Positions 57,321 through 60,433 of a DNA stretch of 64,000 nucleotides are shown here, one piece after another (the stretch's first letter is position 1; every line of letters starts with the position of its first letter). A program made the position numbers and the translations under genes. This DNA is from a phage, in the sequence record PX246730.1; one strand, 5' to 3'. The notes below the pieces were generated by a model that saw nothing but the letters and a program-made list of their open reading frames with translations, was not told the origin of the DNA and did not search any database.

Positions 57321-57405
57321 AATGACCTCAAAGTTATATTAAATTTTGTATTACATTGAGTATAAAATAAGCTATAACACCTGACTTGTCAACAGATTTT
57401 ATAGC

Positions 57406-57830
57406 TTATTTAGCAGATTTTTTATAAGGCTACTGCCATCCTTCCATACATTACCTTACCACACCCTACCATACCTAACCAAACTACACCATACCATACC
57501 TAACCAAACTACACCATACAATACCTTTTTAAAAGACCTTGTTTAAAGGCCTTTTAAAAAGGTAAGTCTCATTTTAATGTAGCTGAGACTAACTACCCAT
57601 ACATTACCTTACCATACCAGACCTCACCCTACCTTAACTTACCTTACTCTATCCTACCAAACACCACTTAAAAACCCTCTTAGAAGACTCTTAAGTGATG
57701 TAATCGGATTTTTATGTAGCTCCGATTAACTACCCATACCAAGCCTAACCTGACCGCACCAAACCTTACAACACCACACCATACCAAACCTCATTAAAAG
57801 ACCCTCTTAAAGACCTTTTAAAAAGGAGCC
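57406..57830. repeat. left copy of ~0.4-kb composite direct repeat (C/A-rich tracts, TTAAAAG boxes, covarying hairpins)
   Basis: near-identical blocks shared with 58965-59265. Confidence 0.7.
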
Positions 57831-57853
57831 TCCGAAGAGGCTACCTAGTCAAC

Positions 57854-58294
57854 TTAGAAAGGTTTTCTACGTTGCTTGTTAATGTTAGCTTTCATAGCAG
57901 CTAAATGGTTTTGCTGTTCAATCAGTCGTGAACGTTCTTGATGACTAAGTGCCATAGTGTTCACATTCTCAATCGCTTGAGTGGCTTGCTTTAAAGCGCG
58001 ACCAATCTTACCAGACATTTTACGTTTTGCAATAGTTGCTTGATGCTTAGGTTCAACCACACGATAACCAACACCCATTGAAGCAACCAGATAAATCTTC
58101 TCTTCTTTAAGAAGCTTCTCAATAAACTTCTCAAGTCGGTTTAGACGTGTAAGCGCATAAGCCTTCATTTCATCTTCGTACTTAACAATGTCGCCTTGAT
58201 AAGTTGGCTTCACAATACCTAAGAAGGTATCCATCTCAGAGTGTGATACAGTGTCACCGTAACTAAACTTTGCTGCTAATGCTTTTGTATTCAT
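57854..58294 (-). CDS. hypothetical protein
   Basis: 146-aa ORF inside repeat-bracketed unit. Confidence 0.5.
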   Translation of the reverse strand: MNTKALAAKFSYGDTVSHSEMDTFLGIVKPTYQGDIVKYEDEMKAYALTRLNRLEKFIEKLLKEEKIYLVASMGVGYRVVEPKHQATIAKRKMSGKIGRALKQATQAIENVNTMALSHQERSRLIEQQNHLAAMKANINKQRRKPF

Positions 58295-58296
58295 AA

Positions 58297-58884
58297 TTAA
58301 ACGTTACCTTCTGAAATAACTTCTACAGAAAAACGACCAAAGCGTGGACGCCAATCACCTACACCACAAAGGTTACCAGCATTTTCCAGAACCATCAAGA
58401 GTTCTTCTTTGGTGATTTGCTCTTCATCGAACATCAAACCAAACTCTACAGACCAATCACGGAAGATTGGACGGTAGCTCATAACTCGTGCTGTACCAAT
58501 CTTAACAGATTTAGCATAGATAAAATCTGGATTCTTAGCAAGTTCTTGTGGGTTTGCTGGACAGTTCTTGATAGTCATTGGGAAGACTACATCTGTCAGC
58601 ATAATAGCTCGGTCAATTACCTTACCAAGTTTGTTGAGTTTTGCACCAGACTTGATACAAGCCTCAATCATCTCACCGTTCATAACAAAACCTAGCTGCT
58701 CATCGTAGTAACAAGAAGTCACCAGTTGACTTTCTGCTAAGAGCGCATAATCTTCGTCAGTCTTTTTACGTTTACTGGACAGAGACTTGTGATATTTTGT
58801 CAGAGGGTTTAATGGGTCTGACAACGTATCGTTATGGCTCAAGAAAGGACGAGTACCAGTGATTTTGATATTTAGCAGTTTCAT
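58297..58884 (-). CDS. hypothetical protein
   Basis: start moved to ATG with GGAG RBS (track start GTG at 58899). Confidence 0.5.
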
Positions 58885-58964
58885 AGCATTTAGCTCCACA
58901 CTTTAGTTGATTGTTAAGTTGTTTGTAAAGAACCCTCAACAGAAGACTCTTTAGAAACTTGGCA

Positions 58965-59265
58965 GATTTTTTATAAGGCTACTGCCATCCTTCCATACAT
59001 TACCAAACAGTACCGTGCCACAACACACCATACCCAACCCCACCTAACTCTACCACACCTCATTAAAAGACCTTGTTTAAAGACCTTTTAAAAAGGTAAG
59101 TCTCATTTTAATGTAGCTGAGACTAACTACCCATACATTACCTTACCATACCGTACTTTACCTTACCGTACCGTACTTTACCCTACCGTACCGGACAATA
59201 CTTAACCCGACCTCGCCCTACCGGACATCACTTAAAAACCCTTTTAAAAGACTCTTAAGTGATGC
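58965..59265. repeat. right copy of ~0.4-kb composite direct repeat
   Basis: shares GGCAGATTTTTTATAAGGCTACTGCCATCCTTCCATACATTACC and GTCTCATTTTAATGTAGCTGAGACTAACTACCCATAC blocks with left copy. Confidence 0.7.
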
Positions 59266-59329
59266 TGGTGAGTACCCGTTGGTTTATGCTGCTCAGTATA
59301 CTCACCAAATTTTCTATGTCAACAACTTT

Positions 59330-60433
59330 TTATTCGTAGTCTCGAATAACTAACCCAACAGGGAACTGTAAAGAACCTTTACGAGTCATCTTCTGGAACT
59401 GAACCGTTAAAGGCTTCCCGATAAACTCTTCAGGATGTTCAGCAAGATACTGTTTCTTCTCATGAGTAGTCTTCCATGAGACATCTACAAAGACGTTAGG
59501 AAGAGTCTCTACAACAAACTTGCCATGACCACGCTTATCAGTCTTTACACCAGTCACTTTAAACTCTTCAGTGTGCATCTTCTTGTGCTTAATCAAGAAG
59601 TATGAACGGTGACAACACTCATAGAAGGAGTCTTCAGAGATTGAACGGTACATTGCACCTTCAAACTTAGCTTCAACCCACTTATCATGAGCTTCATCGA
59701 ACTCTTCCCAAGAATTTACACGACGAGACTTAACAGGGACAACTTTACAACCATCTCTCAAATCATTCAATGGTGAAGTCTCAATAATATCTCTACGCTC
59801 AGGCCACGTTTTAGTACTGTCACAGATATCATACCAGTAGAACTTAAGTAAGTGTCTGTCAGGATTGTCTTCATTTTTAATCATGGAGACAATATCTTCT
59901 AAGTCCCAACCATGAGCATAAATCTCTCCATCAAATTCATCAACATCTTTGTGGAGCCTTAACATTGCCATAATGTCGGGTATTAGTTCAGTAGGGATTT
60001 TATAAACAGTATTTTCACGAGAGTATGCTGTGAATACACTACCAATGCTTAAGTGTCTTGAAATTCTACAACGGACACCATCAAGTTTTGGTTGAGCATC
60101 AGCAGGGAACTTCAGATACTTTGCATGACTAACCTTTGCAGCATCATGAGCAAGCTGTACACCTACCTTCTCAGTATTCTGTGCAGACTCTTTTGTGTAA
60201 GCGTAACCTTTGCGGTCAACTTGCTTTTTATACTTAGCAGCAACTTCAAAGAGAGCTTGCTGTTCAGCGTTACGCTCATTCTTTTTACCGATGTTTTTAG
60301 GTTCTGCTGTATACTCTTCAAACATCATCTTGCCATTTTCTTTACCATAGGTTGTAATAACTTTGTCACCTACAGCAACACACGACCAGACGTTGAAGGA
60401 ACCATCTTTATTTTGTTTGTACAGAATTGTCAT
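59330..60433 (-). CDS. ATP-dependent DNA ligase
   Basis: adenylation motif KLDGVRC (KxDGxR); 367 aa; ATG verified. Confidence 0.8.
   Translation of the reverse strand: MTILYKQNKDGSFNVWSCVAVGDKVITTYGKENGKMMFEEYTAEPKNIGKKNERNAEQQALFEVAAKYKKQVDRKGYAYTKESAQNTEKVGVQLAHDAAKVSHAKYLKFPADAQPKLDGVRCRISRHLSIGSVFTAYSRENTVYKIPTELIPDIMAMLRLHKDVDEFDGEIYAHGWDLEDIVSMIKNEDNPDRHLLKFYWYDICDSTKTWPERRDIIETSPLNDLRDGCKVVPVKSRRVNSWEEFDEAHDKWVEAKFEGAMYRSISEDSFYECCHRSYFLIKHKKMHTEEFKVTGVKTDKRGHGKFVVETLPNVFVDVSWKTTHEKKQYLAEHPEEFIGKPLTVQFQKMTRKGSLQFPVGLVIRDYE

Follow-up and report, generated by a model that had tools for sequence, protein, structure and literature searches.

Results

Organization of the locus

The locus described here occupies positions 57321-59329 of a 64-kb stretch of phage DNA (PX246730.1; 64,000 nucleotides, referred to in full as the window) and comprises two minus-strand genes located between two long composite repeats. 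The region shares 89-97% identity with over 200 Felix O1-like phages (Felixounavirus, Ounavirinae), the best match being Escherichia phage vB_EcoM-LTH02 (96.6%). All genes near the locus lie on the minus strand, and in the order of transcription an ATP-dependent DNA ligase gene (59330-60433) is followed by open reading frames (ORFs) for proteins of 195 (58297-58884), 146 (57854-58294) and 127 (56937-57320) amino acids. The genes for the 195- and 146-residue proteins, which a first-pass annotation had placed at exactly these positions on the minus strand, are separated by a 3-nt gap, and the intergenic regions on either side of the pair are unusually long (445 and 533 bp). As set out below, the locus is very likely a type II VIPR (Viral Interference Programmable Repeat) locus, orthologous to the characterised locus of Escherichia phage SUSP1. 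It belongs to an already known type, in which the repeats are guide-RNA genes and the gene pair encodes an effector (Vipr) and an accessory protein (Vap1).

The two intergenic regions (57321-57853 and 58885-59329) share three blocks, which bears out the direct repeats with long identical stretches previously noted around the gene pair: 57529-57618 corresponds to 59063-59152 (90 nt, 98.9% identity), 57413-57455 to 58962-59004 (43 nt, 100%) and 57665-57700 to 59229-59264 (36 nt, 94%). The motif TAACTACCCATAC occurs in exactly three copies (57590, 57727 and 59124), each after a hairpin, whose stem reads GTCTCA..TGAGAC twice and ATCGGA..TCCGAT once. The C/A-rich tracts described for the plus strand resolve into five phased (NNACC)n tracts, and the TTAAAAG boxes are indeed palindromes with 19-bp stems. 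Allowing for at most one mismatch, ACCNNACCNNACCNNACC has 41 hits, compared with 0.18 expected, all of them on the plus strand and within the two intergenic regions; it is absent from the rest of the window and from the other 24 kb in the genome of a close relative.

A common grammar of guide tracts and tails

For comparison with 32 related loci, both regions were read in transcriptional order. Across these loci, a promoter (P1) is followed by 33 nt and then by one to three units, in each of which an AT-rich palindrome (box A or box B) precedes a (D-G-Y-N-N)n tract of hypervariable sequence, itself followed by a conserved 3' tail. The last tail leads either into the leader of the 195-aa gene or into a hairpin containing a second promoter, and the 146-aa gene is followed by an intrinsic terminator and then by another array. 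P1 is kept in all relatives, guide-less ones included, and the box A palindrome precedes tracts in all loci. The phage analysed here has five tracts of 11-19 pentamers each, and the C/A-rich plus-strand tracts are simply the antisense of these GGY/NN repeats. The number of tracts per locus ranges from one to five, with sequences that are unalignable between near-identical phages, and three relatives have no tract at this site. Tract lengths (46-96 nt) vary in 5-nt steps, and 77 of 94 tracts are unique, though the flanking genes are ~95% identical. In a logo of 955 pentamers, the first position is G in 78% and the second G in 97% of units, the third is T (88%) or C (10%), adding up to 98% Y, and the last two are nearly free. 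The tracts are thus hypervariable in sequence, yet strongly constrained in their phase and in the D-G-Y triplet.

The tails fall into four types (C, c, E1 and E2), all of which fit one hairpin-plus-pseudoknot model. The compensatory stem changes seen earlier between two hairpin copies prove to be real: over 19 distinct tail variants from 33 loci, 90.9% of the cells are paired, as opposed to 28-45% in slid controls, and 8 of 11 pairs change on both sides. The covarying hairpin thus corresponds to the hairpin and pseudoknot of a guide-RNA 3' tail. An Rfam search of the locus returned sub-threshold chance hits only.

Identification as a VIPR locus

VIPR has been described in two 2026 preprints (bioRxiv 10.64898/2026.04.26.720920, 10.64898/2026.04.26.720927) as a phage-encoded system made up of a minimal RAMP protein (Vipr), an accessory gene (vap) and guide RNAs of ~100 nt (vrRNAs). 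The published vrRNA contains 9-16 GGY/NN (YNNGG) repeats, and its invariant tail comprises a hairpin and a pseudoknot. Each GGY is bound by one Vipr protomer, and in the resulting helical filament the NN dinucleotides are exposed and base-pair with double-stranded DNA in an NNxNNx register (the "1-nt skip" rule), independently of a protospacer-adjacent motif. Transcription is repressed upon binding, an effect enhanced by Vap1 (VIPR preprints). In the SUSP1 model, one vrRNA lies upstream and three lie downstream of vipr-vap1, and the natural targets are in a satellite found in E. coli genomes. The ~100-nt vrRNAs of SUSP1 were reported to be expressed, to co-purify with Vipr and to repress the transcription of matching DNA, and reprogramming of their NN dinucleotides changed the reporter that was repressed (VIPR preprints).

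The SUSP1 record shows the same synteny as the window, with Vipr and Vap1 proteins that are 98% and 99% identical to those encoded here, and parsing it with the same grammar yields 1 + 3 tracts, in agreement with the preprint. Guide 1 of the window, with ~18-19 units, slightly exceeds the published repeat range. Neither protein has a match in Pfam, and PHROGs returned only families of unknown function. The AlphaFold2 (AF2) model of the 195-aa protein (predicted local distance difference test score, pLDDT, 94) shows a predicted RAMP fold with an RRM core, a glycine-rich loop and a thumb. This protein has more than 500 homologues, and residues G170, G174, R179, G183 and F185 of its C-terminal G-rich loop are invariant in 38 of them. 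Moreover, the residues reported to hold G1, G2 and Y3 in the cryo-electron microscopy structure of the preprint (H17, R138, D177, W178, R179, E71, M72 and C173) are all present. For the 146-aa protein, the fold search gave no reliable match, and only three homologue clusters were found. One record titled Staphylococcus phage SA1 (GU169904.1, 147 kb) carries a 99.5% identical vipr; this entry and two Campylobacter-labelled records suggest mislabelled or chimeric entries that contain Felix O1-like DNA. The genome papers on Felix O1 and UAB_Phi87 do not discuss the region.

The association between array and effector extends beyond this group of phages. A scan of IMG/VR for (GGTNN)6GGT identified at least 120 contigs, ~50 of which have degenerate arrays in unrelated phages. 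Among these loci, found by DNA pattern alone, a Vipr-family ORF is present at 35 of 50 degenerate arrays versus 1 of 70 microsatellites.

Many unrelated viral contigs (L034-L153) contain degenerate GGY/NN arrays of as many as 18 tracts, with a punctuation that differs from contig to contig (GGCAG, GGCTAATG, AACTAACTG and others). Fifteen of the 50 degenerate-array loci have no Vipr-family ORF within the DNA examined, and perfect GGTNN microsatellites are also common in viral contigs.

Guides match satellite islands in E. coli

The satellite was found indirectly, by a megablast search of the structural region of the phage against 5,426 complete E. coli genomes. A ~550-bp baseplate segment is present in 369 of them (92-96% identity in the best matches), and the stretch of the window related to the islands spans 42628-44365. 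The islands are ~11-13 kb in size, contain two serine recombinases, a tape-measure gene and a baseplate gene, occupy several chromosomal insertion sites, and are presumably the satellite of the VIPR preprint. We scored 77 Felixounavirus guides against 12 islands by their NN matches, using skips of 0, 1, 2 and 3 nt and shuffled NN orders. With a 1-nt skip, 48 of the 77 guides reach an NN match of at least 80%, and 29 reach at least 90%, whereas only a single guide attains 80% with each of the skips of 0, 2 or 3 nt or after shuffling. All 34 best hits checked in the first four islands fall inside the island. Guide 1 matches 34 of 38 NN positions in hypA (L182 9236-9291), the first gene of the island's rightward operon, compared with a maximum of 26 for its shuffles. 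Guide 3 matches hypA at 18 of 22 positions (L179 8713-8744), including all nine central NNs, a marginal score that is equalled by 4 of 200 shuffles. As computed from the coordinates, the skip bases of both guides fall on codon position 3. With guide 2 (see below) counted in, at least two guides of the window match specific foreign DNA under the published 1-nt-skip code.

The islands often contain a Dam-type methylase and an HNH gene, with insertion sites at mdtG, at a DUF72 gene near yecD and near tonB (L177-L188). Guides 5 and 1 hold internal tandem duplications of 25 and 20 nt (within 57461-57526 and 59134-59193, respectively); that of guide 1 may mirror its target, which the repeated part still matches, and guide 5, for which the sampled satellites contain no target, may be slippage-damaged.

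None of the islands examined encodes Vipr or Vap. One of them (L178) holds a 12-unit GGY/NN vrRNA of its own with an E2-like tail (6188-6276, minus strand), which would have to use the Vipr protein of the helper phage.

A putative guide against VIPR loci

Guide 2 matches 25 of 26 NN positions at the tail of the satellite's own vrRNA (L178 6188-6225) and 22-25 of 26 at the E2-type tail just upstream of vipr in all 20 other vipr-positive loci, SUSP1 included. No hit of this guide within the window itself reaches 75%. It is found in 12 GenBank phages, namely this phage and 11 relatives, and its presence coincides with the type of the tail: all 20 vipr-positive loci without guide 2 have an E2 tail, whereas all three with guide 2 have E1. 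The five carriers examined all have E1 after guide 2, and none has an E2 tail. The E1 tail, which is unusual at the vrRNA-2 position, is part of the 43-nt perfect repeat described above. From these sequence relationships, we infer that guide 2 may silence the vrRNA-vipr operons of rivals and that the tail swap to E1 would prevent self-silencing.

Distribution of vipr-vap and orphan guides

The gene pair is present in 118 of 260 GenBank relatives (45%). Of these copies, 114 are at least 95% identical in DNA, with the ligase gene ranging from 80% to 99%. Among the relatives, 77 of 120 Escherichia phages carry the pair, compared with 17 of 77 Salmonella phages, a bias that may reflect the hosts in which the satellite resides.

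The expectation that the unit would be missing between the repeats in some relatives proved correct: Felix O1 and 11 other loci among the 32 lack both genes. In vipr-less loci with two guides, the first guide resembles the upstream and the last the downstream guide of vipr-positive relatives (similarity 0.89-0.98), which is what a crossover between the 90-nt blocks of tail C plus box B would leave behind. The orphan tracts keep the D-G-Y phase (94.8% vs 96.4%), and 7 of 13 still match the satellite. Felix O1 lacks vipr-vap and has kept one orphan vrRNA (L003, NC_005282 57632-57913), whose guide matches 19 of 22 NN positions on the coding strand of vipr (window 58385-58416), with the skips at wobble positions and no shuffle reaching 19. 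Across all vipr-positive loci, this guide scores 17-20 of 22, as opposed to 14-16 in loci that lack vipr. Another orphan guide (L030) agrees with vipr at 16 of 18 positions in eight loci.

Conceivably, the Vipr of a co-infecting phage could take up such orphan guides and thereby be directed to its owner's vipr operon, providing an RNA-only form of anti-VIPR activity, and the vipr-less satellites, one of them with its own vrRNA gene, point to the same borrowing of Vipr. Whether the VIPR clade engages in warfare by guides only, combining an anti-handle guide against rival vrRNAs with orphan guides that borrow a rival's Vipr, is a tentative proposition that we consider possible but somewhat doubtful. 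The text of the VIPR preprints makes no mention of the putative anti-tail guide and its tail swap, of the orphan arrays or of the putative anti-vipr orphan guide, all of which may be new details.

Features of the locus and its surroundings

Table 1. Features assigned at the VIPR locus (window coordinates)
Feature	Position	Strand	Basis or remark
Predicted promoter P1 (TTGACA-16-TATACT)	59295..59322	-	11/12 consensus matches; directly after ligase stop codon
Box A, AT-rich palindrome before guide tract 1	59226..59264	-	Inverted repeat I10; RNA fold, 19-bp stem
vrRNA-1 guide tract, ~18-19 GGY/NN pentamers	59133..59225	-	Unit parse
vrRNA-1 3' tail, type C: GGGTAGTTA + GTCTCA..TGAGAC hairpin; pseudoknot GTAG/CTAC	59100..59132	-	
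Box B, AT-rich palindrome before guide tract 2	59057..59098	-	Inverted repeat, locus comparison, RNA fold
vrRNA-2 guide tract, 13 pentamers, putative anti-VIPR guide	58995..59059	-	Target matches
vrRNA-2 3' tail, type E1: GGAAGGAT + GGCAG..CTGCC hairpin; pseudoknot AAGG/CCTT	58961..58994	-	
vipr leader and ribosome-binding site	58885..58960	-	Sequence; conserved 77-nt leader
vipr, 195-aa effector with predicted RAMP fold	58297..58884	-	
vap1, 146-aa accessory protein	57854..58294	-	99% identical to SUSP1 agp038
Intrinsic terminator after vap1: AGCCTCTTCGGAGGCT + T-run	57827..57842	-	
Box B palindrome before guide tract 3	57795..57826	-	Palindrome scan, locus comparison
vrRNA-3 guide tract, 11 pentamers	57736..57790	-	Marginal satellite match
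vrRNA-3 3' tail, type c (ATCGGA..TCCGAT hairpin)	57703..57735	-	Sequence, covariation
Box A palindrome before guide tract 4	57662..57701	-	Palindrome scan, locus comparison
vrRNA-4 guide tract, ~12-13 pentamers	57599..57661	-	Unit parse
vrRNA-4 3' tail, type C	57566..57598	-	
Box B palindrome before guide tract 5	57522..57564	-	Inverted repeat I3, 19 nt at 95%
vrRNA-5 guide tract, 16 pentamers, internal 25-nt duplication	57446..57525	-	Unit parse
vrRNA-5 3' tail, type E1	57412..57445	-	
Hairpin Q containing promoter P2 (TTGACA-17-TATTTT) for gene 56937-57320	57364..57411	-	Inverted repeat; promoter scan

The phage genes around the locus serve replication (ligase, polymerase and primase-helicase). 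Gene and domain annotation revealed no integrase or transposase near the two genes, in line with the first-pass annotation. A group I intron (62238-62521, minus strand; Rfam RF00028, 64.2 bits against a gathering score of 50, E 2.7e-15) lies inside the DNA polymerase gene, which is split into ORFs 61634-62188 and 62418-63977 and forms a single ORF in Felix O1 and LTH02. Directly downstream of the split polymerase gene is an ORF for an HNH/AP2-type endonuclease (61122-61637). In addition, 24 tRNA genes are clustered on the plus strand at 25026-29864, as is typical of Felix O1-like phages.

Discussion

The features described above can be combined into a working model of the locus. P1, judged by its position and conservation, probably transcribes vrRNA-1, vrRNA-2, vipr and vap1 together, and the long AT-rich palindromes may separate or process the vrRNAs, with a possible role of box A in either processing or transcription. 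Guides 1 and 3 would silence the first gene of the rightward operon of the satellite, an island with Felix-like tape-measure and baseplate genes. Guide 2 would bind the E2-type tail and thereby silence the vrRNA-vipr operon of co-infecting relatives, with the phage evading its own guide by virtue of the E1 tail at this position. The repeated tail and box blocks, finally, may serve homologous recombination that deletes vipr-vap and leaves orphan guides.

Several points weigh against this reading of the locus. The mechanism rests on two preprints awaiting peer review (10.64898/2026.04.26.720920, 10.64898/2026.04.26.720927), and the production of vrRNAs and their binding by Vipr in this phage would follow from the 98-99% identity of its proteins to those of SUSP1. 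A scan for sigma-70-like promoters found none for the three vrRNAs downstream of the terminator. The predicted DNA-binding fold of Vap1 is unconfirmed, with a pLDDT of 68 for the single-sequence model and no reliable fold match. Exact NNx scans gave hits at chance level, none of which extends past the seed (guide 1 in IMG/VR, 0; guide 2 in IMG/VR, 3; guide 3 in GTDB genomes, 19). Lastly, the match of guide 3 is only marginal, and guides 4 and 5 have no target in the 12 satellites, the best score of guide 4 (19 of 26) being no better than that of its shuffles.

A different explanation would regard the repeats merely as mobile regulatory cassettes that shuffle a cargo gene pair, similar to the PeSLs of T4-type phages, which are composite promoter/stem-loop repeats flanking modules of small accessory genes (PMC2839356, PMC4122927). 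Apart from this precedent, it could draw on the position of the pair between direct repeats that hold a promoter, a terminator and stem-loops, on its presence in only some of the 260 relatives, and on the resemblance of the vipr-less arrays to recombination products. However, it leaves unexplained why the D-G-Y-N-N tracts are hypervariable yet in phase, why they show specific NNx matches to satellites and rival loci, and why the cargo protein has a predicted RAMP fold; furthermore, tracts of this kind have already been reported as discrete small RNAs bound by the 195-aa protein in SUSP1. We therefore consider this explanation very improbable, and recombination between the repeats looks like a side effect rather than a function. 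Of the two suggestions made in the first-pass annotation, a recombination-mobile module holds in so far as the loss of the pair fits repeat recombination, but the repeats are not mere recombination sites, and no evidence for an autonomous mobile element was found at the locus. The other, a duplicated regulatory region, has to be abandoned, as the repeats are vrRNA genes and not a duplicated promoter or terminator.

It also appears extremely unlikely that the region is a replication origin, at which a strong promoter directs transcription into tracts that are G-rich on the non-template strand, beside AT-rich palindromes, to form R-loops that prime synthesis, as in ColE1 or T4 ori(uvsY). The extreme strand asymmetry, the palindromes, the upstream promoter and the location among ligase, polymerase and primase-helicase genes would all suit such a function. 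On the other hand, relatives L020-L022 do without any tract at this site, the others have between one and five whose sequences defy alignment even between near-identical phages, R-loop formation does not depend on strict 5-nt phasing or on an invariant G in the second position, and the NN code matches foreign genes.

The sites of TRAP in Bacillus trp leaders consist of (G/U)AG triplets with 2-3-nt spacers, one protein subunit binding each repeat. Tracts that combine a triplet with a 2-nt spacer 9-19 times over share this architecture, and one could envisage mRNA-leader sites for a TRAP-like regulator, an RNA sponge or, given the slippage-type duplications of 5-25 nt within tracts and the many perfect GGTNN microsatellites in other viral contigs, plain pentanucleotide microsatellites, in each case with no guide function. 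We give this group of explanations hardly any credence. The binder is the Vipr filament, with one protomer per repeat, such that the TRAP-like version amounts to the known mechanism minus its guide function. The NN positions are informative, as the matches of the 48 guides to the satellite depend on the 1-nt-skip register and vanish when the NN order is shuffled, and reprogramming these positions has already been reported to redirect repression in SUSP1. Microsatellite loci, in turn, are almost devoid of Vipr ORFs, unlike degenerate arrays. The strict D-G-Y phase and the NN information are likewise not both explained by an R-loop origin, a TRAP-like attenuator, an RNA sponge, a two-tetrad G-quadruplex array, an antisense-strand Rho rut site, an array of primase recognition sites, Shine-Dalgarno-like standby sites or a BREX (GGTAAG) decoy.

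VIPR, with its non-contiguous guide code, has been proposed to be an ancestor-like relative of CRISPR effectors, and the interpretation presented here places the same system in a Felix O1-like phage, with an anatomy that can be read base by base. The relatives of this phage form a natural population with complete guide turnover between flanking genes that are ~95% identical, an effector in 45% of the members and some guides directed against the system itself, and could serve to study the gain, loss and countering of guides. In practice, typing, biocontrol and therapy make use of Felix O1-type phages, and the presence of VIPR and the guide set may affect how strains behave on satellite-bearing hosts or in phage cocktails.

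Like its counterpart in SUSP1, the locus lies between the ligase gene and a gp93-like gene, and the two agree in the order of vrRNA(s), vipr, vap1 and vrRNAs, with nearly identical proteins, as well as in the GGY/NN repeat, the tail hairpin with pseudoknot and the AT-rich boxes. Their targets, too, are of one class, namely E. coli satellites that carry Felix-like structural genes. The locus differs from that of SUSP1 in having 2 + 3 instead of 1 + 3 guides, all five of them distinct in sequence, and in the tail preceding vipr, which is E1 here and E2 in SUSP1, with one guide aimed at the E2 tail of SUSP1 and 19 other relatives. PeSLs share the principle that recombination between composite promoter/stem-loop repeats could account for presence or absence among close relatives. 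However, the repeats of the VIPR locus would themselves be functional RNA genes belonging to the cargo and are unrelated to PeSLs in sequence; the comparison supports the loss of the pair by recombination between repeats but not its shuffling to new sites, and we found no evidence of insertion elsewhere. TRAP sites likewise alternate a conserved triplet with ~2 free nucleotides over 9-19 repeats, each bound by one protein subunit, but TRAP belongs to an unrelated protein family, and its spacers carry no information, whereas those of VIPR are the guide.

A further parallel is found in the backbones of Class 1 CRISPR-Cas effectors (Cas7/Csm3/Cmr4), in which one protomer also covers a fixed number of guide nucleotides and a thumb flips out bases periodically. 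Both systems combine a variable guide with a conserved handle and have guide arrays separated by a conserved palindromic sequence. By contrast, the VIPR locus contains neither cas1/cas2 or other cas genes nor the identical short repeats of CRISPR arrays, and its variable parts are phased pentamers rather than free spacers. The VIPR guide is non-contiguous, with two of every five nucleotides pairing to a target read as NNx, and the system, carried by a virulent phage and directed at other mobile elements, binds and represses its target rather than cleaving it (VIPR preprints). The locus would work like a CRISPR effector but is not a member of the CRISPR-Cas systems.

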